Source: Bacteroidota bacterium (GTDB taxonomy: Bacteria > Bacteroidota > Bacteroidia > Cytophagales > Cyclobacteriaceae). Taken from it: DNA of 63,724 bases. Made by a program: the position numbers and the translations under genes. The notes beneath the pieces are model-generated. The model saw only the letters and a list, made by a program, of their open reading frames with translations. It was not told where the DNA came from and did no database searches. The stretch spans positions 1-63,724 of the forward strand of contig JBCBHL010000001.1 in the NCBI GenBank assembly GCA_038525605.1, read 5' to 3'. Position 1 is the first letter of the stretch; every line of letters starts with the position of its first letter. Positions 39,075 through 60,022 of this stretch are shown piece by piece.

Positions 39075-41063
39075 TTATGAATTCATGTAAATTCTCTCAA
39101 AGCTATAATCGCCCGATCCACTTTCGCTATCAATATCACTATCATTTGTTTTGCTGATCAGGCAGTTACTCAGTTGCGCAACAATATCATCTATATCCAG
39201 GCTATTTGCTTTGGCATCCTGGATAACCTTTCGTACATATTCATCTGCTTTGTATAAAGAAAAAGTGTTAATTTGAGCAATGATACTTTCTTGATCTGCT
39301 GGTCTTAAATCTCCAAACCTTAAGACGGTTTGATCTTCCGGAATTGGGTCTTCCGGTTCATCTTCTTCCAGCCTCCATTCTGCAAGTTCTTGGGGACTTA
39401 GATTGGGCCTTACATAATCCTCCGGTTGTGCTTCTATCCTTGAATCACCAAATTCGGGACCTATCCCAACAGACCACGGTATCAGTATTTGAACGCCTCC
39501 AAAGGCCAATTGCATACTTTTAATAAACTCCGGATTGTCCAATTCACCTAACTTTTTAATGATTGCTTCCACTTGAGTACCTCTTTTGGTAATATCCTCT
39601 TCCTCCAGATCATAGAAATATAGCGATCTCCAAATCCTCATGGTTATGTATTGAATCAGCTCCTCCATCATTTCCTGAGGTTTATTTCTTAGGTTGCTGT
39701 ATTGACGAAGGCTCACTGGCTGTGTTTTATCATTCGGCACATTTAAACCTATGAACACACCCGGCACATCGCTTCCGGCAGCTAACAGGTCATCACCTTC
39801 AATCACTACTCCGGGCTGCCTCAGCACCCAACGTAGGTCGCGACTCACCCTCATCCCTTCAGAATCTTTCCCTCCGGCGAATTTAGACCACCATTTCCCC
39901 CTACCTTGCTTGTGTTCAAGAAAACCAAATACATAGCCCGTATTTCTAAAATGATTCTTGTCTTGTTCAATAATGTTCGCTTCGACAACTGCATCAGCAG
40001 ACTTAGCCTTGGCTTGCCTTTCCCTATACTCGGCGCTTTGCAACTCACCTACTTCCTGAATTTCTTCCCTGCTTGTTGCTTTTCCATACCAGGTGACCAT
40101 CAAGTCCGGTATCATAGCAAGCAATCGTGTTCGAATGGGCGTTATTAACTGGTTGATGGCCTGTACTTCACGATCCGTGTTTTTACTATCAAATTTCGTT
40201 TGTACTTCATTTCTCATTTGAGGTTGTTCTGTTTCTTCAACACTCCCCAACAATCCTCCACCACTCAAATATTCGAATGCGTTTTCAGATCTTTCCCATC
40301 CTCCCGCAACTTCATTTATATGTATATGATTTCCCTTACTGCTACCATAATAATCCCAAACATCTTCAATGTACTTTTGAAAGGCAGTATTATCTCTATA
40401 ATCCGGAAGCAAATTATTCATTCTCGTCCTGAAATACTTCCTTTTCCTTATCCGTGATTTTCGCCTATTTGGTGCGTTTGTATAGATTCTACCCTGAATT
40501 ACCTCATTGCCGGTATTGTAAACCGAAGAATTAAGTTGGCGTTGCTCGCTACCGACAGATAATCTGTCCATAGCCGCCTTATTTCCCATCACATCAGCTT
40601 CTCTTTCCAGACTCGCATCATCATTGAAATTAACTCCTTTTTTGAATTGAAGTGTAGGTTTTACTCTGCCCTGCTTTTGTTGTACCACGTGCCATGCCTC
40701 GTGAGGCAGGTGCTTTTCTTGTCCGGGACCCAAGTGGATGTTTGTTCCCTGTGCGTAAGCATGAGCTTGAAGCTGTGCCGGCTTTGACGAATTGTAATGG
40801 ACCTTTACATCGTCCATCGAAAAACCGGAAAGGTTTTCAATACCTGTTTTGAGCTGATCAGGTAGACCAGCATTAGATCGATTCGTCCGCAGATCAGCTA
40901 AAGGCGCACTTTTCTCTTGTCTTTGAATCACCGCTGCTATTTCACGGTTTTTTGCTGTTGTAGGGCGATTATCTTCTATTGTCCCAGCATTTCCGGGTTT
41001 TTCAGGTGCTATGTCAAGTGACCTGTGATTTTTATCTTTCGACTCTCTGTAGGGTAATTTCAT
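39075..41063 (-). CDS. DUF4157 / eCIS-core domain protein, C-terminal family D (shared with 54335-56179)
   Basis: 662 aa. N-terminal block HEAWHVVQQKQGRVKPT. C-terminal blocks GYVFGFLEH, RWVLRQPG, VPGVFIGL and VQILIPWS match YVFGWLEH, RWILNQPG, VPGFIVGV and VQILFPWS of the 614-aa paralog. Confidence 0.8.
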   Translation of the reverse strand: MKLPYRESKDKNHRSLDIAPEKPGNAGTIEDNRPTTAKNREIAAVIQRQEKSAPLADLRTNRSNAGLPDQLKTGIENLSGFSMDDVKVHYNSSKPAQLQAHAYAQGTNIHLGPGQEKHLPHEAWHVVQQKQGRVKPTLQFKKGVNFNDDASLEREADVMGNKAAMDRLSVGSEQRQLNSSVYNTGNEVIQGRIYTNAPNRRKSRIRKRKYFRTRMNNLLPDYRDNTAFQKYIEDVWDYYGSSKGNHIHINEVAGGWERSENAFEYLSGGGLLGSVEETEQPQMRNEVQTKFDSKNTDREVQAINQLITPIRTRLLAMIPDLMVTWYGKATSREEIQEVGELQSAEYRERQAKAKSADAVVEANIIEQDKNHFRNTGYVFGFLEHKQGRGKWWSKFAGGKDSEGMRVSRDLRWVLRQPGVVIEGDDLLAAGSDVPGVFIGLNVPNDKTQPVSLRQYSNLRNKPQEMMEELIQYITMRIWRSLYFYDLEEEDITKRGTQVEAIIKKLGELDNPEFIKSMQLAFGGVQILIPWSVGIGPEFGDSRIEAQPEDYVRPNLSPQELAEWRLEEDEPEDPIPEDQTVLRFGDLRPADQESIIAQINTFSLYKADEYVRKVIQDAKANSLDIDDIVAQLSNCLISKTNDSDIDSESGSGDYSFERIYMNS

Positions 41064-41274: not shown

Positions 41275-42648
41275 CTATCTTCGATAGATCGTCAGTCTTA
41301 TCGGATCTTTCGGCCTCAAACTCATCTCCGGAACGAATTCCAGTTCATAATTGGATTCATCCCGGAAGTAGAATTTATTATGAACTTTGATTAACGCAAT
41401 CATCATTTCCGACATGGCAAATTGTTCGCCAATGCACAGACTAGGTCCACCACCAAATGGCATGTAGGCATATTTTGGTGTTTTTTTGAATGCTTCTTTC
41501 TCAAACCTCTCCGGCTGGAACGCTTCCGGGTTTTCCCAATATTTTTCCATTCTGTGAAGCACAAAAACCGGGATCGCCACATTGATACCTGCTGGTACAT
41601 GATAGCCATTGATCGTATCGTCATTGATTGCCTGTCTCTGATAAAAAAATGCAGGAGGACAGAGCCTTAGAGTCTCCTTCACCACCTGCCGGACATATTC
41701 TGCTTCTCTGATTTCTTCTGGCGCTCCTGTAAGGGAATGTTGATCAATGTACTGATCTACTTTCTGGTAAACTTCCTGATTGGCAGAAAGATTATACATC
41801 ATGTAGGCCATCGCATGTGCGGTCGTTTCATGACCTGCCAGCATAATTGTAATGAGCTCATCTCTCACCTGGGTTTCCGACATTTTTTCTCCTGTCTCTT
41901 CATCCTCTATTGCCAGTAACATGTCCAGCATGTCATTTTGATGCGGAATTTCACCAGACTTTTTCCGTTCAATCAGCTTCTCAATTACCTTAAAAAGCTC
42001 TCTGGTCTTCTCTTTTTCTTTTTTATTCGCAGGTGTTGGAATCCAATCAGCGTATACAATTGGATTTTTGAACCTGTTCATAATTCGGTTGAGCACATAA
42101 CCTAACTTATCGGCGATGTCTGGCAGATCTTTTTCTATTTCTGTTTTGAAGAGTGCTTTGGCCACAATACGCAAAGCCAGGTGATTGAACTCTTGTGTTA
42201 AGTTCACTTCGTCACCATCTTTATATTTTTTATCCCATTCCGAAACCATATCATCAACGCATTGGCCAATGCCGGTCATCATTTGAAAAATATTATCTTT
42301 ATAGAAAACAGGCTGGATTAATCTTCTCTGTTTTTTCCAAAAATCTCCCTGGCTGGTTAAAAGACCATTGCCAAATAACGGTTTTAACTTAACAGTGAAC
42401 TCTCCTTTTTGATAGTTTTTCTGATTATTGATAAAAATATGCTTGATTGCCTCTGTGTCGTAAAGTACAATCATCCTTCCAGCTTCCACTGGCGCTGAAA
42501 GATAGGCTATATCACCACATTCCTTTTGAACATCTTTCAGATAGGACAGCATATCTCCCATCATTCCTTTTGAGTGTCCCATCAGCCAGTGCTTCTCTCT
42601 GGGCATTGGTGGTTTTTTAGCCACATTAGTATAATCTGTATTCTCCAT
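41275..42648 (-). CDS. Cytochrome P450
   Basis: 457 aa. I-helix AGHETT, K-helix ETLRL, heme-thiolate loop FGGGPSLCIGEQFA. It has no DUF4157 domain. Confidence 0.9.
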   Translation of the reverse strand: MENTDYTNVAKKPPMPREKHWLMGHSKGMMGDMLSYLKDVQKECGDIAYLSAPVEAGRMIVLYDTEAIKHIFINNQKNYQKGEFTVKLKPLFGNGLLTSQGDFWKKQRRLIQPVFYKDNIFQMMTGIGQCVDDMVSEWDKKYKDGDEVNLTQEFNHLALRIVAKALFKTEIEKDLPDIADKLGYVLNRIMNRFKNPIVYADWIPTPANKKEKEKTRELFKVIEKLIERKKSGEIPHQNDMLDMLLAIEDEETGEKMSETQVRDELITIMLAGHETTAHAMAYMMYNLSANQEVYQKVDQYIDQHSLTGAPEEIREAEYVRQVVKETLRLCPPAFFYQRQAINDDTINGYHVPAGINVAIPVFVLHRMEKYWENPEAFQPERFEKEAFKKTPKYAYMPFGGGPSLCIGEQFAMSEMMIALIKVHNKFYFRDESNYELEFVPEMSLRPKDPIRLTIYRR

Positions 42649-42904: not shown

Positions 42905-44875
42905 CTACTCCGGTAGAAATTCGTGCCACTTTTTAATCCATTCTTTTTGAGGTACCAGTTCATCCTGAATATCTCTTAACTCATAAACTCCTGCGTACAT
43001 AGCTGGAGTCTCATTAGAATTGATCTGTAACAGGTTCTGCTGATCCAAAGTGTTTATGTCCCGAATCTGGTAAGGATCTTTATTATCAGAAATTGCCGTC
43101 AGTTTCAATTCAAGTTCCTCTAGGATCTCTTCCCTTTTGTATAGCTTGCGGCTCAAAAATTTCATCGTATCAGTAATTGCCTGATAGAAATTATCTCTAA
43201 AACTTTTCTCTTCCCACCAATCTTTGTTTGCCCAGTCACTTAATTCTATTTGCTTACCAATTGGGGTTTTTGACAAAATCGGAAACCAGTTTTTCATTGT
43301 TGACTTTCGTCGAAAATGGTCTCTGCCTATGACTGCTGATCCGATTGTATACAGGTAGTAAAAGGCTATATTCTTCAAATAGTCTTTATCGGCTTCATCT
43401 AATTTTTTCTCAGAATACATTCCCATCATTCCTGTAACGCCATCAAGAAAGGTATCAGAAGTAATTGCTTTATGTAATGATGAATAGTAATTTCGTGAAT
43501 CAAGAGAAATCTGATCCATGTTCCCATCATGCACCGCTATTAAATCATTGAGTTTAGCTCCTATGTTTACCTGGATATTACCCAGCAATTCTTTATTCTC
43601 AAAGATTCTTTTTTCCGAATCTTCTGGTATGTAGTATCCAAAACCTTCCACCTCGATGTACCTATCTGCTGATTGAAGCACCTGGCTCACTATACTATTC
43701 AACCAGGTAGTCGCATGATCAATAATAACCGTAGCATCTTCTCTGCTTTTTACAGGTACCGTTACTATCTCTACAGCTGCATTTGTAAATAAATTACCGT
43801 CAATTTTTTCATCGATAAGTAACGGGGTGTGATCAACTTTTGCTTCCCAGCCTTGTTCAGTCTTTTCTTTGTCAAACACAGATGTGTTGTATCCTGGATC
43901 ATAACCAGCCGACAAATTACGATCCAGTCCTTTAAATATCGTGTTAAAAACCAGGTCGGAGAATTTCTGAGCATTAGCTTCCGTGCCCTCTTCATAGCCC
44001 TCTATTTCCGGACTATTTTCAATAAAATCTTGACTCAAAGACTTTCCTGCAACCCTATAATCCAAAATACCTTGAAAATTAGTTGCTATGAAGAATATAT
44101 GTCCACTGAGAGATGCTGAACTGTTTACAGGTTCCATCAATTCATCCTGATACTCTTCAATATCATTTGTATCTACTTCCTTTTGATAGAACAGTCTAAT
44201 CGCCTGTAGTTTCCGCCTATCTTCGCTATCATTATCCTTAATTGCCTCCAGACGCCCTGGTTTCAGAACGGGAAGAGATGTTTCTATCTCGATTCCTACC
44301 ATCGCATCATCACTTTTCCGAATGCGCTGAAAAACAGGTGTACTGATCGGTTTTAGAGACAATTGCCTTGTACTGTGAACCGCAGACTGGCTAAATTTAT
44401 GTGCCTTCTCTCCCATCAAATCGGCCTCTCTTTCCAGGCTTACATCGTCGTTGATATTTACTCCTCTTTTGAATTGAAAAGTAGGCCTCACCTTCCCCTG
44501 CTTCTGTTGTACGACATGCCAGGCTTCATGAGGCAGGTGTTTTTCCTGTCCGGGAGCCAGGTGGATGTCAGTACCTTGTGCGTAGGCATGGGCCTGAAGT
44601 TGCGCAGGTTTAGACGAATTATAATGGACGTTCACGTCATCCATTGAGTAGCCTGAGAGACTTTCAATACCTGATTTAAGTTGATATGGCAGACCATCAG
44701 TCTTTTTGCGAGGCAAAGGAATCTCAGCTGACTGGTGATTAATCGTCTCCCTGAGCTTTCTCTGGTGTACAGAAAGCGGGCGATTATCTGCAATAGCCAC
44801 AGTACCATAAGAAGACGCTGCTGCTTGTCTTGCAGCCCATTTTTGATCTTTGATTTCGGTTTTTACTGATTTCAT
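42905..44875 (-). CDS. DUF4157 / eCIS-core domain protein, C-terminal family C (GS/amidoligase-like motif order)
   Basis: 656 aa. N-terminal block HEAWHVVQQKQGKVRPT. C-terminal blocks VGIEIETS, AVEIVTVPV, GNIQVNIGA, WFPILSKT and GVYELRD are shared with the 47125 and 52101 genes. Confidence 0.8.
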   Translation of the reverse strand: MKSVKTEIKDQKWAARQAAASSYGTVAIADNRPLSVHQRKLRETINHQSAEIPLPRKKTDGLPYQLKSGIESLSGYSMDDVNVHYNSSKPAQLQAHAYAQGTDIHLAPGQEKHLPHEAWHVVQQKQGKVRPTFQFKRGVNINDDVSLEREADLMGEKAHKFSQSAVHSTRQLSLKPISTPVFQRIRKSDDAMVGIEIETSLPVLKPGRLEAIKDNDSEDRRKLQAIRLFYQKEVDTNDIEEYQDELMEPVNSSASLSGHIFFIATNFQGILDYRVAGKSLSQDFIENSPEIEGYEEGTEANAQKFSDLVFNTIFKGLDRNLSAGYDPGYNTSVFDKEKTEQGWEAKVDHTPLLIDEKIDGNLFTNAAVEIVTVPVKSREDATVIIDHATTWLNSIVSQVLQSADRYIEVEGFGYYIPEDSEKRIFENKELLGNIQVNIGAKLNDLIAVHDGNMDQISLDSRNYYSSLHKAITSDTFLDGVTGMMGMYSEKKLDEADKDYLKNIAFYYLYTIGSAVIGRDHFRRKSTMKNWFPILSKTPIGKQIELSDWANKDWWEEKSFRDNFYQAITDTMKFLSRKLYKREEILEELELKLTAISDNKDPYQIRDINTLDQQNLLQINSNETPAMYAGVYELRDIQDELVPQKEWIKKWHEFLPE

Positions 44876-45117: not shown

Positions 45118-46491
45118 TCATTTACTTTCTATATATCTTTTGAATAAATATGCATAAGTATCCGCATTAGCCACACTGTATTTAATGTCGAACTCATTAT
45201 CTTTTGCAGTAGTAGGACCAGTTGAGTAAAAATTGTCGTGGGTACCGGCAAAGTAGTGTGTTAGTTCATGCATAAAAGTATCTCTAACAGCTCCTTTGGT
45301 CTTTTTTTCATTACCTGATAAAATATTCATATTAAGATAAAGCCTGTCTCCATTTATTTGTTTTAATTCATCAGAGTCTTGAAGAAATTTAAAACTTGAT
45401 ATATTCTCGCCTTTAATAAATGGATCTTTTTTGATGGTAACCTTATCTATATTTTTAACCCCTTTGACTTTTTTGTTCTTTCTTTTAAAAGCTTCTTCAC
45501 TATGTTTTGAATAGCCGACCTTTTTAGAGTGTTCTTCTAATTCAATCTGTTTCACTAGCCCTAACACATCCCTTCCTATAGCACTGGAAATCTCAACAGT
45601 AATTGGACTTCCTTCCAGTCCTGTTTTCACCCTGGAAAATGTTTGTATAATATACGGTAGATATCTTTTAGTAAGCGTGAAATTATTGATCGGTAGACCA
45701 AATGATTCTTGCAATATGATAAAAACCGGACTTTTTCTATTTCTACTGTATTCTTTTACCTGCATTCCATTGACCCGATTCAAGTCTATCAGAATCTTTG
45801 TTAAATTAGTCCTGATCTCCTCATATGCATCTTTGATGAGCCTTATGAAATCTTTATATTTTTTATTGCGAAACCTTGCATTTGACTTTATAATGAGGTT
45901 TTCATCTTCGTAAATATCCTTTCTTTGGATCGTTGATGAATGTACCTTTTCCGATACCAAACCTGGATTTCCGCTATTTTCAACCTGTTCATGATGAGAT
46001 TTCAAAGCCTTCTCTCCCATCACATCGGCCTCTCTTTCCAGAATTACGTCGTCGTTGATATTTACTCCTCTTTTAAATTGAAAAGTGGGTCTTACTCTAC
46101 CCTGCTTTTGCTGCACGACATGCCAGGCTTCATGCGGCAGGTGTCTTTCCTGTCCGGGAGCCAGGTGGATATCAGTGCCTTGCGCATAGGCATGCGCCCT
46201 TAACTGTGCAGGTTTAGAAGAGTTGTAGTGAACTTTTACATCGTCCATTGAGTAACCGGAAAGATTCTCAATCCCTGTTTTCAATTGGATAGGAAGACCG
46301 TCACTTCTTTTACTAAACTGAGGGTCAGGTTTTAGTGGGTGATTCATCGTTTCATGGAGCTTTCGCTGATAAACTGCACCGGGGCGATTGTCTGCTATGG
46401 TTGCTGCTCCATGTAAATGCTCTTCCACTTGTTGTCGCGGTTCTTTGCTAGTGGCAGATAAGTCGTATATCGTTTTGTTCATTTTGATCAA
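45118..46491 (-). CDS. DUF4157 / eCIS-core domain protein with a C-terminal HExxH (HELTH) metallopeptidase-like module
   Basis: 457 aa. N-terminal block HEAWHVVQQKQGRVRPT. C-terminal part ...VRDTFMHELTHYFAGTHDNFY. Confidence 0.8.
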   Translation of the reverse strand: MIKMNKTIYDLSATSKEPRQQVEEHLHGAATIADNRPGAVYQRKLHETMNHPLKPDPQFSKRSDGLPIQLKTGIENLSGYSMDDVKVHYNSSKPAQLRAHAYAQGTDIHLAPGQERHLPHEAWHVVQQKQGRVRPTFQFKRGVNINDDVILEREADVMGEKALKSHHEQVENSGNPGLVSEKVHSSTIQRKDIYEDENLIIKSNARFRNKKYKDFIRLIKDAYEEIRTNLTKILIDLNRVNGMQVKEYSRNRKSPVFIILQESFGLPINNFTLTKRYLPYIIQTFSRVKTGLEGSPITVEISSAIGRDVLGLVKQIELEEHSKKVGYSKHSEEAFKRKNKKVKGVKNIDKVTIKKDPFIKGENISSFKFLQDSDELKQINGDRLYLNMNILSGNEKKTKGAVRDTFMHELTHYFAGTHDNFYSTGPTTAKDNEFDIKYSVANADTYAYLFKRYIESK

Positions 46492-47124: not shown

Positions 47125-48840
47125 CTACAATAAGAATTTCTTCCATGTATCTATCCAATACTTTTGCCTGAAGGTGGAATCCTGCGTATCCCGGATTTCA
47201 TAAACGCCTGCATATGATCCATCATCAAGCTGCAATAGGTTCGGGTCGTTTAGACTATTAATCTTTTCCTTCACATCCGGAAATGGCTCTTCATTTTTCT
47301 TCAATTGATTAACAGCATAGTCGACATATTCCAGATAATCCTTATTTTTTACTACTTCGGAAGGCAGATTAGCCATAATTGCATCCCCCAACCACCACCT
47401 GATCTGAAGGTCATTATCGGCCCAATATTGCTTTTTTGCCCACGGGCTTAATGTGATTTGTTGATTGATATCCGTCTTGCTTAAGATTGGGAAATAATTT
47501 TTGATTTGTTGTTTATTCGGATCATTAACCCCATAATAATAAGCTGCTGCTGAATAGAGGTAATAAAATGAAATATTTCTTAGGTAGTAAGCATCCCATT
47601 CATCTACTAATACCTTCTTCATCAGGTGATTCAACACTGCAAACCAAAAAGTATCATTCCAGAACTGCTGCATAGCTTCTGCATGTTTTTTCTGAGTGTC
47701 ATTTTCATTTGAAATCGTGTCCAGGTTAGCCGAATGCATTGATATCAGATCTCCTAAGTTTGCACCGACGTTGACCTGAATATTTCCCCAAAGTTCATCT
47801 TTGAATAAAATATAATCCTTAACTGTTGGTGGGATATCAAAAGTGTATTTCCCTACTGTATATGGACCCTTTTTGCAATTTTCGACAATATCATTAAGCC
47901 AGGTATTCACACTGACTAATATCTTTTCGGCCTCTTCGATAGAGTTTACTGGTACTGTAACAATTTCAATCGCTGAATCCGAATACAACTTACCTGCCTT
48001 ATATAGTCTTCTATTAACAGGTGGGTGATCTACTTCAGCTTTCCACATGCCAGCTACCTCATGGATGAGCTGTTGATAGCCAGGATCGTACTGAAAACGA
48101 AGTTCTGCATCTGCTTTTTCATAAGCTTCTGATTTTTCCTCACTGGCATTCTCCTCATCATAATCACTAATGATTTGCTGATAATGCTCAATACCCAGCA
48201 TTTTCGTGATCTTAGCGTTTTTGTAAGCGTTAAAAACTGGTAGAGTCGTCTCAATCTCTAGACCTACTTTAGCATTGGCACTCTTCCTGACGCGTTGTAT
48301 AACCTGCTTATCGGCAATTTTGCTGCTCTTTGCACCGTTAGCTGCTGAATGACCTGAAAATTGGTTTGCCTTATCGCCCATCACATCGGCCTCTCTTTCC
48401 AGACTTAGATCGTCGTTGATATGTATTCCTCTTTTAAATTGAAAAGATGGTTTCACCCTTCCCTGCTTTTGCTGCACAACATGCCACGCTTCATGAGGCA
48501 GGTGTTTTTCCTGACCTGGACCCAGATGAATATCAGTGCCTTGTGCATAGGCTAAAGCATTGAGTTGGGCCGGCCTGTTAGAATTGTAATGAACTTTCAC
48601 ATCATCCATGGAGTAACCGGAAAGATTCTCAATACCTGATTTAAGTTGGATTGGCAGGCCGTTGGCTCTTTCGCCTCCGGGAGAATTTGCCGCTGTGTGG
48701 TGATTCATCGTCTCTCGGAGCTTTCGCTGATAAACAGTGAGGAGACGATAGTCTGCAATAGCCACAGCACCATGAGAAGAACCTGCTGCTTGTCCCGCAG
48801 GCTCTTTTTCTTCTTTAATTTCGGTTTTTGCTGATTTCAT
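47125..48840 (-). CDS. DUF4157 / eCIS-core domain protein, C-terminal family C
   Basis: 571 aa. N-terminal block HEAWHVVQQKQGRVKPS. C-terminal blocks VGLEIETT, AIEIVTVPV, GNIQVNVGA, YFPILSKT and GVYEIRD. Confidence 0.8.
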   Translation of the reverse strand: MKSAKTEIKEEKEPAGQAAGSSHGAVAIADYRLLTVYQRKLRETMNHHTAANSPGGERANGLPIQLKSGIENLSGYSMDDVKVHYNSNRPAQLNALAYAQGTDIHLGPGQEKHLPHEAWHVVQQKQGRVKPSFQFKRGIHINDDLSLEREADVMGDKANQFSGHSAANGAKSSKIADKQVIQRVRKSANAKVGLEIETTLPVFNAYKNAKITKMLGIEHYQQIISDYDEENASEEKSEAYEKADAELRFQYDPGYQQLIHEVAGMWKAEVDHPPVNRRLYKAGKLYSDSAIEIVTVPVNSIEEAEKILVSVNTWLNDIVENCKKGPYTVGKYTFDIPPTVKDYILFKDELWGNIQVNVGANLGDLISMHSANLDTISNENDTQKKHAEAMQQFWNDTFWFAVLNHLMKKVLVDEWDAYYLRNISFYYLYSAAAYYYGVNDPNKQQIKNYFPILSKTDINQQITLSPWAKKQYWADNDLQIRWWLGDAIMANLPSEVVKNKDYLEYVDYAVNQLKKNEEPFPDVKEKINSLNDPNLLQLDDGSYAGVYEIRDTQDSTFRQKYWIDTWKKFLL

Positions 48841-49045: not shown

Positions 49046-49219
49046 ATGTTGTTGATTGATGCTTGTCTGGATACAGCTTATCTGGACCAATTAACAAGTT
49101 TTGAAGAACTGCTTTGATACCTAAAGTACCTATAAAAAGTTTAACCAGGCTTCATTATGTGACCTGAATTCTCCTGTTGATGAAAATACCAACAAGGGCA
49201 AGGATTAAAAAGAGAAGTC

Positions 49220-49722
49220 GGATAATGCTTACTTTTCCATTTCTGCAAATTGACCTTTCTACTTCACAAACGCATTTCTCCTTTGTGCAGATTGACTTTT
49301 CCACTTGACAAACGTATTTCTCCTTTGAGCAGCTGCATTTTTTAACTCGGTAAATGGACTTTTCTACTTGACAAACGTACTTTTCCTTTTGACAGACGCA
49401 TTTCTTCTTTGCACAGAAGCATTTTTCAACTCGACAAATGGACTTTTCCTTTTTGCAAATTGACTTTTCCTTTTGACAAATGCATTTCTCCACTTAACAA
49501 ACACACTTCTCCATTTGACAAATACATTTCTTCACTTGACAAACGGACTTTTCCTTTTGACAAAAGCACTTCTTCTTCGTGCAGATGCATTTTTCCACTC
49601 GGCAAATGGACTATTCTATTTGACAAACGTACTTTCCTTTTTGCAAATTGACTTCTCCGCTTGACAAACGCATTTCTCCTTTGTGCAGAAGCATTTTTCC
49701 AATCGGTAAATGGACTTTTTGA
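49220..49722. repeat. Degenerate 21-bp tandem repeat array, about 24 units, approximate + strand consensus cTTGACAAAcGcATTTCTCCt
   Basis: Read directly from the sequence. Units such as cttgacaaacgtatttctcct, tttgacaaatgcatttctcca, ttgtgcagaagcatttttcca and ctcggtaaatggacttttcta follow head to tail with no spacers. One unit is 20 nt. Several reading frames on both strands are open. Confidence 0.85.
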
Positions 49723-49753: not shown

Positions 49754-51877
49754 TCAATTAACGGCTTTCAAAATTTTTCCAACATTTCCTTCCCGGACTT
49801 CAGCGACATGCAGGCGCATATCAGGCCATAATGCTGGCAATTGCACATTCGCCTGATCAAGGTATGTGGCTTGTCTGGCTCCTACCAATGTGTCATCATG
49901 GTCATACAAGTGATTTGTTGTCGGTTTGCGATTAGCTACTCTATTTTTTCCATTGTTCAGTACATCGATCAAATTTAAAATCAACGTGTCGATATCCCGG
50001 ACTAATCGTTTGTGCTTATCCTGCTTACCGTCCATTTCAATTTCATTAAACAATTGTGTATCTCCACTGATCTTCGTAAGACCTTCTTTCAGTGAACTGA
50101 TTAGTGCTTTGAGTTCAACTTTGTTTAGCACTAATGCCATACTGGCTACATGATCTTTGATCCACAAGACACCCGGATTTTTCACCTTGGAGATGAATTC
50201 GGCATGCATTTTTACTGTTGCTTTGAGAATCGTAAATGCGAAAGAACTTGATTTTGTCTTTGAATCTTTAATTGCCTGATACAGTTTGAGCTGAGCCTGC
50301 TTTAGATTACTCAGATCATCTATGATCAGAGAATTTGCCAGTTTCCTGATAACTTGCTGATGTACGGATATCAGCTTTGGACTATGGTAATTTAGTCTAA
50401 TCAATTTCGCCAGCAACTCTTCAGTTTCGACAAATCGTTTGGTAATTACAGCATGAGAGAGGTTACTTTTCATTTGGTCAAATAGTGCAATTGTTTCCAT
50501 GTCAGCAGCGAAATTAATCTGAGACAACACCCCATTTTCAAGATGGTCATTGTTTTTACCTTTGTTACCTAACCCCTTTGAAAATCCAGCTATTTTCTTA
50601 CTTTCTCCTATCCTGATTTCTGAGAGTGAATCTTTATCTATGATCAGCTGATCAGCGCTGATGAATCCTCTCACTTTATCAATATTCGTATTATGAGAAA
50701 GATGCTCAGATTTGATTTCTACAGGGTTCAATGTAAAGTTCAGTCCAAAATTTGTCTTAAATCCTCCGATTAAACCCAGGATGGTATGATCTGTTGGTTT
50801 TTCGATCAATGAATGAAGGGCTTTTTGAAACAACACATCTATTTCGTTAGCTGTTTCCCAATAGGGCAATGGTCTGCCCTTGCTAGCTGGAAGCAAAAAA
50901 GGAGGTGTCACTAGTTCCAGGGCATTCATCGCGTCCGTTTCCAGCGTAAACGGCAGTTTAGTCAGAGGCATTTTCTCCATGCTTTCGGATATTTCCAGGT
51001 GAGAAACCCCATTTAATGGACTATTGATCATGTCTGCAAACTCATGTTCATAGCCTGCAGTAGTCAACAAGAATTCAAAATCCTTTTGGTTACTTCTGAC
51101 CAGCTTCTGAAATACGATTTGATGCCCGATGAAATCACAGATTTTACCTTTAGAGCTACGAAAAAGTCCGAAATACTCCGGAAGCACTTTTTCCATTCTC
51201 CCAGACAGTTCTTCGAGGTTGCCGAAAGATTTACCTACCTGATCATAGGCCGGGTAAATATGGGTTGAAAAAAGCTTTTGATTTTCACCCGTCAGATCAA
51301 GGTGCTTACTGATTTCTGTTTCATTGAGCTCTTCTTTATCAACTTTTACTTTTCTCTGAACAACGGATGATTGTCCGTAAAAGCCATTGACTTGTAAAGG
51401 TTTTATACTATTTGCAGGAAGCTGCGGACTGCCTGAGTTATTTACCATATTGCCCACCACTTTTTCACGTGTAGTATCAACCAAATATCCATTGACAAAT
51501 TTGTCCCCTGCCGGAGTGCCGTTCATCCTGTTATCGATGGCATGTGCTACTTCATGACGGATGTTATGTGGTGAATCCTGCCCCGGACCGAAGTGAATCC
51601 GATTCCCCTGAATAGTGGCTTCTGCATGGAGCCTGGAAGGAAGAGAGGAATTGTGAGTCGCCTTCAAGCCGGATGTATCCACACCATATTGCAATCCCAT
51701 CTTTGCTACGATTCGGTCGAATTTTGAAGTACCGTTCATTCTATCCAGAAGCTTTCTCTGGATGGTACTATTTGGACGATGATCATTTATTTGAGCTAAT
51801 TGATCGTTATGCGATTCAGTTCTTTCGCGGGCATATTTTTTTTCTTCTTGCTCAGTCTTGTAACATTTTGCTTTCAT
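49754..51877 (-). CDS. eCIS-core/DUF4157-like (variant HEVAH subtype) protein with a large C-terminal module distantly resembling family C
   Basis: 707 aa. N-terminal block YGVDTSGLKATHNSSLPSRLHAEATIQGNRIHFGPG...IRHEVAHAIDN. C-terminal motifs AGYEHEFA, ALELVTPPF, SQINFAAD and LHVAEVRE. Confidence 0.75.
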   Translation of the reverse strand: MKAKCYKTEQEEKKYARERTESHNDQLAQINDHRPNSTIQRKLLDRMNGTSKFDRIVAKMGLQYGVDTSGLKATHNSSLPSRLHAEATIQGNRIHFGPGQDSPHNIRHEVAHAIDNRMNGTPAGDKFVNGYLVDTTREKVVGNMVNNSGSPQLPANSIKPLQVNGFYGQSSVVQRKVKVDKEELNETEISKHLDLTGENQKLFSTHIYPAYDQVGKSFGNLEELSGRMEKVLPEYFGLFRSSKGKICDFIGHQIVFQKLVRSNQKDFEFLLTTAGYEHEFADMINSPLNGVSHLEISESMEKMPLTKLPFTLETDAMNALELVTPPFLLPASKGRPLPYWETANEIDVLFQKALHSLIEKPTDHTILGLIGGFKTNFGLNFTLNPVEIKSEHLSHNTNIDKVRGFISADQLIIDKDSLSEIRIGESKKIAGFSKGLGNKGKNNDHLENGVLSQINFAADMETIALFDQMKSNLSHAVITKRFVETEELLAKLIRLNYHSPKLISVHQQVIRKLANSLIIDDLSNLKQAQLKLYQAIKDSKTKSSSFAFTILKATVKMHAEFISKVKNPGVLWIKDHVASMALVLNKVELKALISSLKEGLTKISGDTQLFNEIEMDGKQDKHKRLVRDIDTLILNLIDVLNNGKNRVANRKPTTNHLYDHDDTLVGARQATYLDQANVQLPALWPDMRLHVAEVREGNVGKILKAVN

Positions 51878-52100: not shown

Positions 52101-54203
52101 TTAGTCCTTGTTTAATGAATTCAAAATCTCATTCATAGTATTTTTATGCTTTTCGCCAGCTTTTAGTATGCCGACAGTATTGAATTTTTTTACGTTTTTT
52201 TTATCAGGGTAATCTAATAAATAGCTATGCCACAAACCCAACCATTCTGTCTGTTTATAAGTGTTGTTTTGCAGATACCTGATCTCAAATACGCCGGCAT
52301 GCTTATCATTTTCTATTGCCAGATGCTCTGGATTGGTAATATTGTTATTAAAATCATACTGTTTGTCAGCGGCTAACCCTTGTAATATCTGTATTAAAGA
52401 TCTTATCTGTTTGAGCAATGATTTGTGTTTTCCGGAACTACTGATTGCCAGGAAAATTGCTTCTGTAAACCTGGTCCTAAATGCCTTTTGATGGTCATCT
52501 AGTTTGTCTTTGATACCCCATATCTTCTCTCGGTTTTTCCAGGCACTTAGATTTGTTTGTATTTCCACCGGCGTTTTGAGTAAGATTGGGAATTTGTTTT
52601 TCGGGCTGGACTCATCAGTCATCTTTCTTAAATCTGCCGCCAGTTGATAGATGTGTTGAAACATGATGTTTCTAAGAAATGGTTCGTCTTCCGGGTTGAT
52701 AGTAAAATCATCATACTTTTTTAGCCGTTTTCTTTCTTTATAATTGGTCTGATTTGAAAATTTTTGCTTTTTCTTAGCCATCAAAGGGTTTGTCCATCGA
52801 AAAGCATTGAATTCAGCCTTTACTGATTTCCAGAATTCATCACTTCCAAAATCGGCCAAAATATCAGTTAGGAATTTTTTGTCATCAGGATCTTTTACGT
52901 CTTCAAGATTTGTATGAAACACGTCTATAACATCCTCTAAGGTGGCACCAATGTTCACTTGTATATTGCCTTTTAGCTGACCACCTTTCAAATAGTTTTC
53001 AGCAATTTTATCATGTTCAGGAATCTCATAAGTAAATGCCCCCACTTCAAATGATTTAGTTGAATAAACAGGTTTTAACCATTGCTCTATATCATCCATT
53101 ATATCATCTGCCTGCTGTTTACTTTTAACAGGATCTGTCACAATTTCAACCCCCATATTGGATGCTAAGTGACCATTTCGATAGCCTTCCACAGTCATAG
53201 GTACTTTTTCACTTACTGCCTGCCAACCTTTACCCTGGTGTAGTAGTTTTCCAATTGGAACATCAAATACTCCAAGGAATGCACTTTGTATTCTTCCAAT
53301 ACACTGTTTTAAAGGAATATCAGCAGCTTTACCATCAAGATGATTAATAATAGAGGGTCCAACTTGGGAATTGGTTAAATTAAGAACTGCCATTAATGCT
53401 TTAACTTTTTTACTCTCTTCTTGGTTTATTTCACCTTGTTCACTGTTATCCAACCCATTTAACAGACTGATTAAATGCATGGCATTTTTATGCTTGTCTA
53501 ATACATGGATTTCTTTTTCTTCGTATTTCTTTCCTTTGTAGGTAACACGTTCGCTTTTTGACCTTCTTACCGGTAAACTAGTTTCAATTTCCAGACCTAC
53601 CCTAGCACCTACAGTCTTTTTGATTCTTTGGCATTGTATGACTTTAGATAGAGCAGCAATCTGATGATTATTTCTTGTATCCTTATTTTGGATGTTATCT
53701 GATTTTGATACCTGGCCTTTCCTTTGAATTGCCTTATCTCCCATCAAATCAGCTTCCCTCTCCAAACCAGCATCATCGTTGATTTTCAAATTACTTCGCA
53801 GTTGTAAGGTAGGCTTTACCCTCCCTTGCTTTTGCTGCACTACATGCCAGGCTTCATGCGGTAAATGTTTTTCCTGACCAGGTGCCAGGTGGATATTAGT
53901 ACCATGTGCAAAGGCATGGGCATTTAGTTGTGCAGGTTTATGTGAATTGTAGTGCACTTTCACATCGTCCATTGCATAACCGGAAAGATTTTCGATTCCG
54001 AACTTCAGTTGAGCAGGTAATCCGTCATTTCTTTTACTTAACCGAGGATAAGATATTCGTTGGTGATTCATCGTTTCATGGAGCTTTCGCTGATAAACTG
54101 CACCCATGCGATTATCAGCAATAGTTGCGGTTCCTTGTAAAGGCTCTGCCAAATACTTTGCCGGCCCTTTCCGATCTTTGATTTTGATTTTTGATGATTT
54201 CAT
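52101..54203 (-). CDS. DUF4157 / eCIS-core domain protein, C-terminal family C
   Basis: 700 aa. N-terminal block HEAWHVVQQKQGRVKPT. C-terminal blocks VGLEIETS, GVEIVTDPV, GNIQVNIGA, KFPILLKT and GVFEIRY. Confidence 0.8.
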   Translation of the reverse strand: MKSSKIKIKDRKGPAKYLAEPLQGTATIADNRMGAVYQRKLHETMNHQRISYPRLSKRNDGLPAQLKFGIENLSGYAMDDVKVHYNSHKPAQLNAHAFAHGTNIHLAPGQEKHLPHEAWHVVQQKQGRVKPTLQLRSNLKINDDAGLEREADLMGDKAIQRKGQVSKSDNIQNKDTRNNHQIAALSKVIQCQRIKKTVGARVGLEIETSLPVRRSKSERVTYKGKKYEEKEIHVLDKHKNAMHLISLLNGLDNSEQGEINQEESKKVKALMAVLNLTNSQVGPSIINHLDGKAADIPLKQCIGRIQSAFLGVFDVPIGKLLHQGKGWQAVSEKVPMTVEGYRNGHLASNMGVEIVTDPVKSKQQADDIMDDIEQWLKPVYSTKSFEVGAFTYEIPEHDKIAENYLKGGQLKGNIQVNIGATLEDVIDVFHTNLEDVKDPDDKKFLTDILADFGSDEFWKSVKAEFNAFRWTNPLMAKKKQKFSNQTNYKERKRLKKYDDFTINPEDEPFLRNIMFQHIYQLAADLRKMTDESSPKNKFPILLKTPVEIQTNLSAWKNREKIWGIKDKLDDHQKAFRTRFTEAIFLAISSSGKHKSLLKQIRSLIQILQGLAADKQYDFNNNITNPEHLAIENDKHAGVFEIRYLQNNTYKQTEWLGLWHSYLLDYPDKKNVKKFNTVGILKAGEKHKNTMNEILNSLNKD

Positions 54204-54334: not shown

Positions 54335-56179
54335 CTACGAAACCTTGTTTGGCGTTTTTTTTTTTTGTATTTTGAAATCATTGGAATCAAGTGGGGCAAC
54401 CATTCCCTCTGGTAATGTATTTTTTATTCTTCCCTTTCTGTCCATTCTATTTCGGAAATCATGAAAGTCTTCCAAATAGGCAGGCTGCCTTTCCGGACCG
54501 ATTTTATGACTCAAACTCCAGGGAAATAAAATTTGTACTTTTACGGAATAAATCCTTTGCAGCAAATTGATATATTGCGCATCATTTTGAATTTGCTTAA
54601 TCGCGTCGTATTGGGTCACCATCCTTTCAGTTGGATCTTCATCGTTGTTTTGTGCATCGTGAATAAAATCCCTGAACAATTTCATCTTGATATGTTGGGC
54701 TAAATCCAGCATCATAGCTTCTGCACGATCTCCCGGCTGCTCTCTCTCCCCGATTGTTTCAAATTCTTTTAATTTAGTTTCTTCATCTGATTCATGCACA
54801 CCTACTATAAACCCAGGTACCTCGGAAGAATTATCCCTTCCCTGAACGTATTCATTTGCCATCATCAAAGATCCGGGTTGATTTAGAATCCATCTAAGCG
54901 GACGACTATATCTCATACCACCTGACATGGCTAAATTACGAATTTCGGATGCAGCAAATCTGGTAGGTCTTGGAATCATTGTATTATGTTCCAGCCAGCC
55001 AAATACATAGGCGTAATTGCCAGTGACAATATCTGTGTCAATCACATTTCCAACTGTTTCGGTATTCGTATCAAATGCCGCTGAATCTTCATACAATACT
55101 TCATCTTGCTGATTCTCACCTGTCTCCGGCACATTTGTTTCTCTATTCTTTTGCAGATCTAGCCTCTTTCGCAAGCTGTCAATTGCTCCTGCTTTGTCGA
55201 TAATTGATTTATCAACTTTATTAAAATAAAAACTGAACAATAGTTGATCCAGCATATTTATAAATCTTGTACTGATATCTTGATATATCTCATCAAGAAA
55301 CTGCAGCTCATCATTATCTTTATTATTTTCATATTCCTGCATTAGTTCTAATCTTTTATTTTTATCATTTAAGATGATCCCACTTTTAAAGACGAAGAAT
55401 GCTTTTTCTGCATTTTCCTCTGTTTCCTCGATCATCCCGATAATTCTATTAATCGTGGTATAATTCCAGACACCTCCATATCTTTTCCAGACCTCCTCCA
55501 ATAACTCATTGATCCAGGGCGTTTCTACATCGTCCCGCCTTTCAGAGACTAATTCCTTCACTCTCTCTTTAGAACGAACATAGGCAAAGGGACCATTGCC
55601 ATTTTTTATCCTTAGCTGGTGAACTGACCGTCCTGAAAAGGAAACAGCATTGAACCGTTCTGCTGCTGGCGATCCTCCGTATGATAGAGCTTTTGCCCCC
55701 ATCACGTCTGCCTCTCTCTCCAAACCAGCATCATCATTGACCGCTATCTTTCCCTGAAACTGCATAGTGGGTTTCACCCTCCCCTGCTTTTGCTGTACCA
55801 CATGCCAGGCTTCATGCGGCAGATGTTTTTCCTGCCCGGGCCCCAGGTGGATGTCTGTTCCTTGTGCATATGCAAGAGCATCTAGTTGTGCTGGTTTTGC
55901 AGAATTGTAATGCACATTTACATCATCCATTGCATAACCGGAAAGGTTCTCGATTCCGGATTTAAGTTGGTCTGGTAATCCGGTTGCGTTAGCCTTTCGC
56001 TGCAATGGTAAATTGCCATTACCCGAAGAATCCTCAATGGCATTTTTTAACTGGCGTTGAAGAACGCATTTCGGTTTGTAATCTACATATCCGGCTCTCG
56101 CCTTGCCACCTGGTTCATTCGATACTCGCAGGATTGTTTTGGTTTGTTGTTCATAGGCTTGATTAACTATCTCTTTCAT
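54335..56179 (-). CDS. DUF4157 / eCIS-core domain protein, C-terminal family D (shared with 39075-41063)
   Basis: 614 aa. N-terminal block HEAWHVVQQKQGRVKPT followed by MQFQGKIAVNDDAGLEREADVMG. The C-terminal family D blocks are listed under 39075-41063. Confidence 0.8.
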   Translation of the reverse strand: MKEIVNQAYEQQTKTILRVSNEPGGKARAGYVDYKPKCVLQRQLKNAIEDSSGNGNLPLQRKANATGLPDQLKSGIENLSGYAMDDVNVHYNSAKPAQLDALAYAQGTDIHLGPGQEKHLPHEAWHVVQQKQGRVKPTMQFQGKIAVNDDAGLEREADVMGAKALSYGGSPAAERFNAVSFSGRSVHQLRIKNGNGPFAYVRSKERVKELVSERRDDVETPWINELLEEVWKRYGGVWNYTTINRIIGMIEETEENAEKAFFVFKSGIILNDKNKRLELMQEYENNKDNDELQFLDEIYQDISTRFINMLDQLLFSFYFNKVDKSIIDKAGAIDSLRKRLDLQKNRETNVPETGENQQDEVLYEDSAAFDTNTETVGNVIDTDIVTGNYAYVFGWLEHNTMIPRPTRFAASEIRNLAMSGGMRYSRPLRWILNQPGSLMMANEYVQGRDNSSEVPGFIVGVHESDEETKLKEFETIGEREQPGDRAEAMMLDLAQHIKMKLFRDFIHDAQNNDEDPTERMVTQYDAIKQIQNDAQYINLLQRIYSVKVQILFPWSLSHKIGPERQPAYLEDFHDFRNRMDRKGRIKNTLPEGMVAPLDSNDFKIQKKKTPNKVS

Positions 56180-58300: not shown

Positions 58301-60022
58301 CTAATCCTCAACGTTGATAGTCCTCACCAGATCGAAGACTGCTAAAGCGAAAGGTTTTAATTTTGAAGGAGGCACATCATTCCTGAGTTTGCGCAGTTCA
58401 ATAATAGCTCCTGCTCTGTTTTGTTCTGTTTCGGAATCTCCTATATCTGAGGTGTTAGTCATTCCAAACTCCCCTGTTCTGTTAGTTTGACCGTAACCGT
58501 CCAAAGCAGTAGGCCAAATGCTCTGCAAATCTTGTCCATTACTCAATAAGTTCAGTAAGTTTCTAATAGTCATTTGATTTCTGTTAAGGCCATCAGGAAC
58601 TTTCGGAACAATTAATTGATTTTTAATCGCTGGAGGTATTCCGTTGATTACCGCTATTTCACCAGGGTTGAGGGAGTTATAAAACGGGAGTAACCCCATT
58701 CTAAAAAGGAATGGCATATAATATTTAATAACAGAACTATCCTCCGGGTTTATTGCTCCACTTCCACTAGCTTCTGCCATACCGTAGAGTATTGCCATAA
58801 AACTTATCGTCTTTTCTGATGCATTTACCCTCTGACCAAACTCTTTTGCCTTTTTTAATCCATTAGCCCAGGCGCTCCTAAATGGTTTTTGATCTTCCTT
58901 TTGACTCCAGCCGATGGTATTTGTATACTTTGTCAGTGGCTTATCTAGTAGTTTACCCAAATATGTTTTGTAATAAGCCCTCGTACCTAATCTCTTATAA
59001 GTTCTGCCTTTACCCTTTCTGAATGGGGCTTTGGTTAATCGATCGATTAAATAATGGATCTTTTCAAACTTAACACCTACAGTTGCCTGTGGGTGAAAAT
59101 GAACTGAACCATTTACATCGAAAAATAGAGTGGTAGTTGGAAACGTAACCCCTCCACTTATATAACTAGGCAACCAGGCTAGTGACCCTGGGTGCAAATT
59201 GGTCACTTGTTGCTCATGTCTGATGCCCTTCGTAAACGTTTCGACTTCAGTCATAATCTCTTCGAGTCGTCTACGCCCAGGGTCAGTCTCATCAACTGCT
59301 ACTGTAATGATTTCCAACTCATCAAATGAATTCCCATAATCTCCTTCTATCTTAAAGCCATCGGCCCGAGCTAGCTCGTTCTCTTCGGTAGTACCCATCC
59401 CAGCATCGTAATGGTTTGAGTTAAATGTCACGCTATCATAAGCCTGGAACTCAAACCCAATTTTCCGTTGAATGGGTCCATTAGCGGTATTACTTTCTTT
59501 AAGCTGTGCAGGATTATCAGTCTTAAGCCGCATTGCCTTATCACCCATTACATCTGCCTCTTTTTCTAATCCAGCATCGTCATTGATCTTGACTCCTCTT
59601 TTGAATTGAAAAGTTGGCCTTACCCTTCCCTGCTTTTGTTGTACTACGTGCCAGGCTTCATGTGGGAGGTGCTGTTCCTGTCCGGGTCCGAGGTGGATAT
59701 TTGTTCCTTGTGCATAGGCAAGGGCATTGAATTGTGCTGGCCTGGCTGAGTTATAATGAACATTTACATCATCCATTGCATAACCGGAAAGGTTTTCGAT
59801 TCCGGACTTCAGTTGGTCAGGCAGTCCGGTTTGATTAGGTTTTCGTTGTATAGAGGAATTAGTATTGGCTTTAGACTCCTCAATGTCATTTTTTAGCCGG
59901 CGCTGATAAACAGTGGATGGGCGGTCGTCTGTAATTGTGATTGATTCCTGACTGCCAGCAACTTCTTGCTGGGTCTTCCTTTGCGCTTTTGGGTCATTTG
60001 AATATTCAAGTGATGCTTTCAT
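58301..60022 (-). CDS. DUF4157 / eCIS-core domain protein with a C-terminal module showing GS/amidoligase-like motifs (divergent relative of family C)
   Basis: 573 aa. N-terminal block HEAWHVVQQKQGRVRPT. C-terminal motifs IGFEFQAY, ELEIITVAV, SVHFHPQATVG, YMPFLFRMG and AIIELRK. Confidence 0.8.
   Translation of the reverse strand: MKASLEYSNDPKAQRKTQQEVAGSQESITITDDRPSTVYQRRLKNDIEESKANTNSSIQRKPNQTGLPDQLKSGIENLSGYAMDDVNVHYNSARPAQFNALAYAQGTNIHLGPGQEQHLPHEAWHVVQQKQGRVRPTFQFKRGVKINDDAGLEKEADVMGDKAMRLKTDNPAQLKESNTANGPIQRKIGFEFQAYDSVTFNSNHYDAGMGTTEENELARADGFKIEGDYGNSFDELEIITVAVDETDPGRRRLEEIMTEVETFTKGIRHEQQVTNLHPGSLAWLPSYISGGVTFPTTTLFFDVNGSVHFHPQATVGVKFEKIHYLIDRLTKAPFRKGKGRTYKRLGTRAYYKTYLGKLLDKPLTKYTNTIGWSQKEDQKPFRSAWANGLKKAKEFGQRVNASEKTISFMAILYGMAEASGSGAINPEDSSVIKYYMPFLFRMGLLPFYNSLNPGEIAVINGIPPAIKNQLIVPKVPDGLNRNQMTIRNLLNLLSNGQDLQSIWPTALDGYGQTNRTGEFGMTNTSDIGDSETEQNRAGAIIELRKLRNDVPPSKLKPFALAVFDLVRTINVED

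Follow-up and report, generated by a model that had tools for sequence, protein, structure and literature searches.

The window analysed here is a stretch of 63,724 nt, positions 1 to 63,724 of contig JBCBHL010000001.1 (GCA_038525605.1), and its right-hand 30 kb make up the final portion of a locus for an extracellular contractile injection system (eCIS). Four genes of this locus, 42905-44875, 47125-48840, 52101-54203 and 58301-60022, encode eCIS cargo (effector) proteins, and their C-terminal payloads fall into two families, a rare family A (the first three genes) and a commoner family B (the fourth), which, judged from their sequence profiles, are homologous and form one superfamily. The best overall explanation, towards which the evidence leans slightly, is that these effectors carry a strongly diverged carboxylate-amine ligase core of the glutamine synthetase (GS)-like / Amidoligase_2-like type. 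A GS-like / Amidoligase_2-like fold is in itself rather likely; ligase chemistry falls a little short of an even chance. The assignment as eCIS cargo is made because each protein has a DUF4157 N-terminus and because of the literature on DUF4157 cargo and toxins: in AlgoCIS, experiments showed that the tube lumen is filled by DUF4157 proteins, each with a disordered leader and a C-terminal domain that varies (PMC8894135), and no other genomic marker of eCIS toxins is as good as DUF4157 (PMC8213781, PMC11297309). Loading of the window's effectors into the particle, and their toxicity, would be expected by analogy with Cgo1/Cgo2 (PMC8894135).

The three family-A genes, all on the minus strand, encode proteins that align end to end and share a C-terminal module of about 390-510 amino acids (aa). 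A reading of this DNA made from the sequence alone (hereafter the sequence-only reading) had proposed that these close paralogs share a module of five collinear blocks, and this was confirmed: when the window's 37 stop-to-stop segments of 200 aa or more were scanned, the strict motifs G[IL]EIET, [VI]EIVT.P, GNIQVN[IV]G, KN.FPIL.KT and GV[YF]E[LI]R occurred in exactly these three open reading frames (ORFs). The 42905 payload (aa 185-656) matches the 47125 copy at E=4e-51 in a database of 5.8 billion proteins, and shares 38% and 30% identity with the payloads of the other two genes. In addition to the five reported motifs, the module contains a sixth, W-x-A-x-V-D-H, which sits between blocks 1 and 2 and is degenerate in the 52101 copy. 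The family-A features are as follows.

42905..44875, minus: effector gene 1, 656 aa; eCIS_core/DUF4157 at aa 62-127 (HEAWH at aa 116; E=4e-9), then the family-A payload.
42905..44323, minus: family-A payload of gene 1, aa 185-656.
44276..44299, minus: motif 1, VGIEIETS, the G-x-E-x-E strand; G, E and E invariant in 14 members.
43829..43849, minus: motif 1b, WEAKVDH, the W-x-x-x-V-D-H strand, which was missing from the earlier list.
43751..43777, minus: motif 2, AVEIVTVPV; E, V and T invariant, P nearly so.
43556..43582, minus: motif 3, GNIQVNIGA; G, Q and G invariant, I and N nearly so.
43265..43294, minus: motif 4, KNWFPILSKT; two invariant Lys, 8 residues apart.
42971..42991, minus: motif 5, GVYELRD, the E-x-R strand; G, V, E and R invariant.
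47125..48840, minus: effector gene 2, 571 aa; DUF4157 and the most compact family-A payload (module 47125-48288).
48244-48267, 48025-48045, 47947-47973, 47761-47787, 47473-47502 and 47188-47208: motifs 1, 1b, 2, 3, 4 and 5 of gene 2.
52101..54203, minus: effector gene 3, 700 aa; DUF4157 and a family-A payload (module 52101-53630).
53577-53600, 53127-53153, 52944-52970, 52572-52601 and 52275-52295: motifs 1, 2, 3, 4 and 5 of gene 3, with motif 1b degenerate as WQAVSEK at 53205-53225.

Family A is very rare. An exhaustive hidden Markov model (HMM) search of 1.84 billion representative proteins returned 13 relatives, a scan of 185,579 species genomes found the family in a single species, an uncultured Aquimarina, and a viral-contig scan gave no relatives. 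The five motifs are kept in the same order in all full-length relatives. The resulting alignment of 14 sequences, which are 20-38% identical to the reference copy except for one close relative at 79%, contains 24 invariant columns, namely G10, E12, I13, E14, V19, E109, V111, T112, P154, G169, Q172 and G176 in the N-terminal half (numbering of the 47125 module) and K264, N265, P268, L270, K272, T273, W290, G362, V363, E365, R367 and W379 in the C-terminal half. No usable match for the module was obtained in Pfam, NCBIfam, PHROGs or PDB sequences by single-sequence or family-profile searches.

The fourth payload, that of the 58301 gene, defines family B, which comprises 40 clusters, mostly fused to DUF4157, from Mucilaginibacter, Winogradskyella and other Bacteroidota. 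Its features are the following.

58301..60022, minus: family-B effector gene, 573 aa; DUF4157 and the family-B payload (module 58301-59506).
59438-59461, 59333-59356 and 59294-59320: IGFEFQAY, FKIEGDYG and ELEIITVAV.
59075-59107, 58694-58726 and 58388-58408: SVHFHPQATVG, KYYMPFLFRMG and AIIELRK.

Neither this payload nor that of the 49754 gene, discussed below, is linked to family A by BLASTP. Profile-profile comparison of families A and B with hhalign gave E=1.7e-6 and a probability of 90%, spanning the EIVT strand to the GNIQVN strand, and a gap-tolerant profile alignment purpose-written for this analysis gave z=9.5 against column shuffles, with all six blocks collinear. Single family-A sequences aligned with the family-B profile at P 0.0004-0.008, against 0.2-0.8 for unrelated effectors of the same island. 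The 58301 payload, listed by the sequence-only reading as a divergent copy, is thus a distant homologue. The register of block 3 had been placed slightly off: Q172 and G176 align with the invariant Q and G of HFHPQATVG, and the two His align with W168 and N170. Family B has a G-x-E-x-Q first strand, a nearly invariant H-F-H followed by P-Q, and E-L-R on the last strand, and it carries K and R at the spacing of the two motif-4 Lys of family A.

A fifth copy had also been proposed, in the gene at 49754-51877, and here the claim could not be established; we give it roughly an even chance.

49754..51877, minus: 707 aa; variant DUF4157 (HEVAHAIDN) with a weak eCIS_core match (E=0.001); the payload is a candidate third branch.
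51035-51058, 50930-50950, 50897-50923, 50501-50524 and 49790-49813: motif-like stretches AGYEHEFA, FTLETDA, ALELVTPPF, SQINFAAD and LHVAEVRE.

No significant link of this payload to family A, family B or Amidoligase_2 was found by BLASTP or hhalign, the best hhalign result being P=0.03 for FTLETD...ALELVTPP against GFxVExD...ELEIVTxPV, and a metagenome scan returned no relatives, hence no profile could be built. A loose ordered regular expression, written after the sequences had been seen, picks exactly the five named genes and matches none of 5600 shuffled ORFs. Gap-tolerant alignment of the single sequence against profiles was also tried for judging this copy and was discarded as too noisy. 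As a separate observation, the variant DUF4157 N-terminus shares 45% identity with the N-terminus of an Aquimarina protein (locus L002, 11452-13635), whose gene comes right after a family-A effector; the C-terminal payloads of the two proteins are unrelated.

AlphaFold2 models were built for one module of each family. For family A the 47125 module was chosen as the most compact copy (38% identical to the 42905 module), and the model based on the 14-sequence alignment reached pLDDT 88.5 and pTM 0.84; the 58301 module, modelled with 36 sequences, reached pLDDT 84.9 and pTM 0.86. In both models DSSP places every conserved block on a β-strand, the remainder being helical, and in the family-A model helix makes up more than half of the module. 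The motif logic proposed by the sequence-only reading is sound, and all six conserved blocks lie on β-strands of a confident model. The strands of the family-A model, in module numbering, are as follows.

9-21: motif 1.
83-88: motif 1b.
107-112: motif 2.
166-177: motif 3.
269-271: motif 4.
362-366: motif 5.

Conserved polar residues alternate along these strands (E12/E14, N170/Q172/N174, E365/R367), an arrangement that, as modelled, fits an active site on one face of the sheet.

Some support for a relationship to amidoligases comes from structure and from sequence profiles. When the family-A model was searched with Foldseek against the viral structure library BFVD, the first match was an uncharacterised Terrestrivirus protein, A0A3G4ZRS2 (E=2e-5, TM-score 0.42), and two proteins annotated 'Amidoligase enzyme' came second (E=0.022, probability 0.80) and fourth (E=0.19). 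Amidoligases were detected by tblastn in 315 of 50,697 phage records, or ~0.6% of phage genomes, from which we roughly estimate that they make up ~1e-4 to 1e-3 of phage proteins; given this rarity, and since the family had been predicted beforehand, two amidoligases among the top four are very unlikely to be there by chance. For the profile comparisons, 106 genuine Amidoligase_2 proteins were gathered, with the annotated amidoligase of phage UFV-P2 as seed. The merged A+B profile aligned in hhalign with the divergent PF12224 subset over 62 columns in register (P=0.00097, probability 22%), covering motif 1 (G-x-E-x-E), W..D, and E-x-V-T-x-P with the next helix; a second, collinear alignment covered the E-x-R strand and its helix (P=0.068), and reversed controls gave P 0.16-0.29. 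In these alignments motif 1b is paired with W..K.DGS of Amidoligase_2. The signal became sharper after families A and B were merged, as expected for true remote homology. A purpose-written profile test of the A+B core against Amidoligase_2 gave z ~4 and P 0.0006-0.005 under column shuffling. In Pfam itself, Amidoligase_2 (PF12224) reached at best 14.6 bits (E=0.031) with an insert-trimmed consensus, below the gathering threshold of 22 bits; one natural family-A member scored 13.3 bits and the other 13 nothing. These sub-threshold matches (E 0.03-0.14) pair motif 1, or motifs 1b-2, with the N-terminal 104 positions of the profile. Residues invariant in real Amidoligase_2 proteins (G30 E32 E34 E36; D54 S56 L57 R58 G60 E62; R95 H99 H101; R134; Y176 N180; E191 R193) follow the same order as the motifs of families A and B. 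One of 14 members, P0010, also matched Pfam ACD (PF16671) at 12.7 bits (E=0.04; threshold 27 bits), residues 179-246 against profile positions 220-283.

Several results weigh against the amidoligase reading. No Pfam or NCBIfam threshold was reached by any of 50 members, and ten insert-trimmed members gave no Amidoligase_2 match at all. HMMER comparisons of family A or family B alone with Amidoligase_2 were empty in both directions, and in hhalign family A alone or family B alone reached a probability of at most 2% with Amidoligase_2, only motif 1 being aligned (P=0.02). The purpose-written profile test fell to P 0.05-0.08 when 12-column blocks were shuffled for the null, and because about ten profile variants were run, P values should be discounted roughly tenfold, so that 1e-3 is read as roughly 1e-2. 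Foldseek searches of PDB with both models returned no GS, GCS, YbdK, ACD or guanido-kinase chain in the top 50; the best E values were 0.7 and 0.02, with TM-scores of ~0.1, and none was at E<=0.001. The two BFVD amidoligase matches themselves have low TM-scores, 0.26 and 0.20. Finally, family A has no His in GNIQVNxG, the strand corresponding to the invariant H-x-H of Amidoligase_2, and the distance from motif 4 to motif 5 is ~100 residues as against ~15 in Amidoligase_2. The empty PDB fold search is partly explained by the fact that no solved Amidoligase_2 structure was detectable in PDB by sequence search.

Other members of the wider fold class gave no signal: Gln-synt_C, GCS2 and Glu_cys_ligase were not listed at E up to 10 for any of 14 family-A and 36 family-B members, and ATP-gua_Ptrans was not matched in any Pfam scan of these 50. 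Three candidates of other kinds were set aside. A 'Cgl0159-like' Pfam match appeared for the family-B consensus only (E=0.004), did not recur in 36 members and was disregarded; matches to JNK in the PDB search (TM-score ~0.13, rmsd ~20 Å) are meaningless, the remainder being low-TM helical or kinase noise; and a CYTH / triphosphate-tunnel fold, considered on account of the E-x-E first strand, was never retrieved though many such structures exist in PDB. The GS/amidoligase assignment of the sequence-only reading thus stands in part: BFVD ranks 2 and 4, the merged-profile alignment and the sub-threshold Pfam matches speak for it, whereas the PDB search, the family thresholds, HMMER and the trimmed members do not. 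The profile and structure searches that it had set beforehand as its own check for a GS fold were likewise partly adverse, with no Pfam threshold passed and no GS-fold match in PDB. Formally, no existing family includes the module, which represents a new superfamily of effector domains and plausibly a divergent ligase of the GS-like type; a very distant kinship with ATP-dependent enzymes that form amide bonds may exist, as these faint signals suggest.

The alternative that deserves most attention is an enzyme domain of a new or unrecognised fold unrelated to GS, for example a metal-dependent hydrolase, nuclease or phosphatase with acidic and basic residues on β-strands, whose likeness to amidoligases would be convergent or a chance match of short motifs. 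We consider this unlikely, but it would account for the two confident models without a significant Foldseek match in PDB, for the lack of sequence matches in Pfam, NCBIfam, PHROGs and PDB, for the negative HMMER and single-family hhalign comparisons with Amidoligase_2 and for the loss of the weak Pfam signal in trimmed members; the top BFVD match (E=2e-5), moreover, is an uncharacterised giant-virus protein, not an amidoligase. What a chance likeness explains less well is that amidoligase, a family named in advance, recurs in three partly independent tests (BFVD, merged-profile hhalign and sub-threshold Pfam), that no other family recurs, and that the order of the motifs agrees with that of the invariant residues of real Amidoligase_2 proteins.

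The GS fold is common to arginine and creatine kinases, and a protein of GS / guanido-kinase-like fold could also be an ATP-dependent phosphotransferase (kinase) or an ATPase, the N-x-Q-x-N strand then reflecting a changed chemistry. This option rests on the same fold evidence as the ligase reading, is in keeping with the absence from family A of the His pair invariant in Amidoligase_2, and would make equally good use of the two invariant Lys and the E-x-R, which suit phosphate binding as well as ligation. We regard it as improbable nonetheless: nothing points specifically to a kinase, the nearest weak matches are to ligases (Amidoligase_2, ACD) and not to guanido kinases, and the Pfam scans gave no ATP-gua_Ptrans match. 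A non-catalytic payload, with a binding, pore-forming or scaffolding role and residues conserved for folding or target recognition, is very improbable. A module that is more than half helical and, in family A, lacks the canonical His pair could be taken that way, but invariance of E, E, E, Q, K, K, E and R at 20-38% identity, with the residues alternating on strands, is the pattern of an active site, and no transmembrane-like stretch stood out on direct reading of the sequences.

Under the favoured reading, that of a diverged GS-like / Amidoligase_2-like ligase core, a curved antiparallel sheet would carry the active-site residues: E-x-E on strand 1, the E of the EIVT strand, two basic residues on the KNxxPILxK strand and E-x-R on the last strand; in place of the H-x-H of canonical enzymes, the long GNIQVN strand would bear N-x-Q-x-N. 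The large helical insertions would serve substrate recognition. After injection, E12, E14, E109 and E365, together with Q172 and N170/N174, would bind a divalent metal (Mg or Mn) and ATP, K264, K272 and R367 would bind phosphates, and a carboxylate would be activated as an acyl-phosphate and then ligated to an amine on a protein or metabolite of the target cell. The ACD toxin ligates actin in this manner. At the positions that hold His in Amidoligase_2 and family B, family A has Asn/Gln, which are still able to ligate Mg or Mn, and for this reason the family-A copies are not called inactive. As a more far-reaching and more tentative hypothesis, which we hold to be possible, families A and B may represent an unrecognised branch of the GS-like ligase superfamily used as injected effectors, in which the His pair that binds metal and phosphate has given way to Asn/Gln and large helical inserts select a new target; it would be an ATP-dependent toxin, distinct from ACD, that ligates proteins or metabolites, present in several divergent copies per eCIS locus for several targets.

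The setting of these genes is that of an eCIS effector array. Twelve genes, running on the minus strand from 60022 down to 33169, encode products that each start with Pfam eCIS_core (DUF4157). Matches to eCIS_core (PF13699) in the four family-A and family-B genes have E values of 4e-9, 2e-8, 2e-8 and 3e-8, and all exceed the 22-bit cut-off. The proteins share a layout of disordered N-terminal leader, DUF4157/eCIS_core, a (V/I)QR(K/R) junction and a variable C-terminal payload. The DUF4157 parts of the three family-A genes are 74-77% identical, and the N-terminal domains (aa 55-160) of the 12 effectors are 74-82% identical regardless of payload, whereas identity between payloads of one family is only 30-38%; the contrast is suggestive of cassette-like exchange, or of homogenisation, among the 5' parts. 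The designation of the module as the dominant payload of the island is fair, but the dominance is modest, with three family-A copies, one family-B copy and possibly the 49754 copy among 12 DUF4157 effectors. The eCIS genes and two genes without DUF4157 are arranged as follows.

62547-63548, minus: CIS tape-measure protein, C-terminal part (Pfam CIS_TMP, E=1e-65).
61143-62528, minus: eCIS AAA+ ATPase (Pfam AAA, E=8e-28).
60035-61135, minus: patatin phospholipase without DUF4157, between the AAA ATPase and the first DUF4157 effector.
41275-42648, minus: complete cytochrome P450 gene (Pfam p450, 3e-83) without DUF4157, which interrupts the effector array.

The patatin-like phospholipase is probably a further cargo or effector protein. 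In the ORF list of the window, the effectors are not separated by small genes of immunity type, as would be compatible with a target that is non-self and possibly eukaryotic. Comparable loci were found elsewhere: Aquimarina locus L002 has the same eCIS gene order, with a family-A gene immediately after the ATPase, and in Mucilaginibacter angelicae (locus L003, 10001-19883), where this order recurs, five DUF4157 genes adjoin CIS_TMP and AAA, three of them with family-B payloads, so that multi-copy arrays of the superfamily are not peculiar to the window.

Further observations concern the effectors and their surroundings. The (V/I)QR(K/R) motif occurs at ~aa 173-191 of most effectors, just ahead of the payload, and stands directly before motif 1 in families A and B, e.g., in the 58301 gene (59462-59473) and the 47125 gene (48289-48300); a similar QRK is found near aa 36-60 of the effectors. 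The motif may serve as a signal for processing or loading. A second pair of paralogous payloads is encoded by 39075-41063 and 54335-56179 (minus strand; BLASTP E=5e-27, 25% identity), with common FGWLEH and RW(V/I)L(R/N)QPG blocks and no Pfam annotation. The 56280-58253 payload (minus) contains a long pentapeptide-repeat domain (Pfam, 3e-46), and that of 45118-46491 (minus) a C-terminal HExxH (FMHELTHYF) region with a weak WLM-like match. In the gap between two effector genes, 49155-49493 (minus) is an ORF of 112 aa with Cys/Lys/Glu-rich repeats (C-x-K-E-K-S-I-C...) and no Pfam match, which may be a mere DNA tandem repeat. The left part of the window, 1-32733, is of ordinary Bacteroidota-type housekeeping content: a histidine kinase, cytochrome c oxidase subunit I, an alternative complex III-like set of Fe-S, NrfD and multihaem cytochrome proteins, a beta-lactamase-fold protein, and a fused HAD/2-hydroxyacid-dehydrogenase/ACT protein, taken as SerB-SerA-like.

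For one unannotated group of DUF4157 toxins, the module and its larger sister family B now provide a name, domain limits, a confident model and candidate catalytic residues; in marine and soil Bacteroidota, the superfamily is found repeatedly beside eCIS loci in arrays of several copies. Should the ligase reading be true, ACD would no longer be the single known example of a toxin that acts by ATP-dependent amide-bond formation, and engineered injection systems would gain new enzyme payloads; if it is wrong, a confident new fold with an obvious predicted active site would still be a worthwhile experimental target.

Among known systems, Amidoligase_2 (PF12224), a family of putative GS-like amidoligases found in phages and bacteria, e.g., Pseudomonas phage UFV-P2 and the LUZ24 type, has its strand motifs in the same order as the module: G-x-E-x-E, W....D and E-x-V-(T/F)-x-P with a helix in the first half, then a polar-x-polar strand ending near G/D, K-(Y/N)-x-x-(L/P) and G-x-x-E-(F/L)-R with a helix in the second. 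The first strand, G-x-E-x-E, and the last, E-(F/L)-R, are likewise invariant in family A (G10 E12 E14; E365 R367). In contrast, N-I-Q-V-N stands in family A for the invariant H-x-H, and the module has no clear equivalent of R95 and R134, both invariant, or of the S-L-R in D-G-S-L-R. It also contains helical insertions, which measure ~60-150 aa behind strand 1 and ~100 aa between its last two strands with motifs. The contexts differ as well, the module being fused to DUF4157 in eCIS loci, whereas phage amidoligases adjoin glutamine amidotransferase and ATP-grasp genes. The motif logic of GS proper consists of E-x-E on the first strand, a later Glu, a pair of metal or phosphate ligands on a long strand, basic residues and E-x-R; the module follows this generic logic, which it shares with GS, GCS2 (YbdK) and gamma-glutamylcysteine ligase, but unlike GS it has no N-terminal beta-grasp domain and shows no sign of oligomeric ring assembly.

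ACD, the actin cross-linking domain (Vibrio cholerae VgrG1, MARTX), is an ATP- and Mg-dependent GS-fold ligase toxin that is delivered into target cells, among other routes by a contractile system. It resembles the module in toxin delivery, in its DUF4157-flanked eCIS example and in one weak family-A match (E=0.04); on the other side, PDB holds ACD structures, yet Foldseek retrieved none, and nothing points to actin as the target of the module. The eCIS example is EAT13, an ACD-type toxin flanked by DUF4157 genes and validated in an eCIS (PMC8213781), and with that report already in place the suggestion that an amidoligase-type effector would be an uncommon toxin chemistry was overstated. Relative to annotated eCIS toxins, the C-terminal domain of the module is not among the known toxin domains, as is common in this group: among 1130 predicted eCIS-associated toxins (EATs) with DUF4157, 983 lack a second annotated domain (PMC11297309). 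With DUF4157 cargo such as AlgoCIS Cgo1/Cgo2 and the EATs, the window's effectors share an identical architecture and the position of their genes immediately downstream of the eCIS AAA ATPase (PMC8894135; PMC11297309). Ligase-toxin chemistry itself thus has a precedent in ACD, and what is new here is an unannotated domain superfamily with unusual substitutions and large inserts relative to Amidoligase_2.

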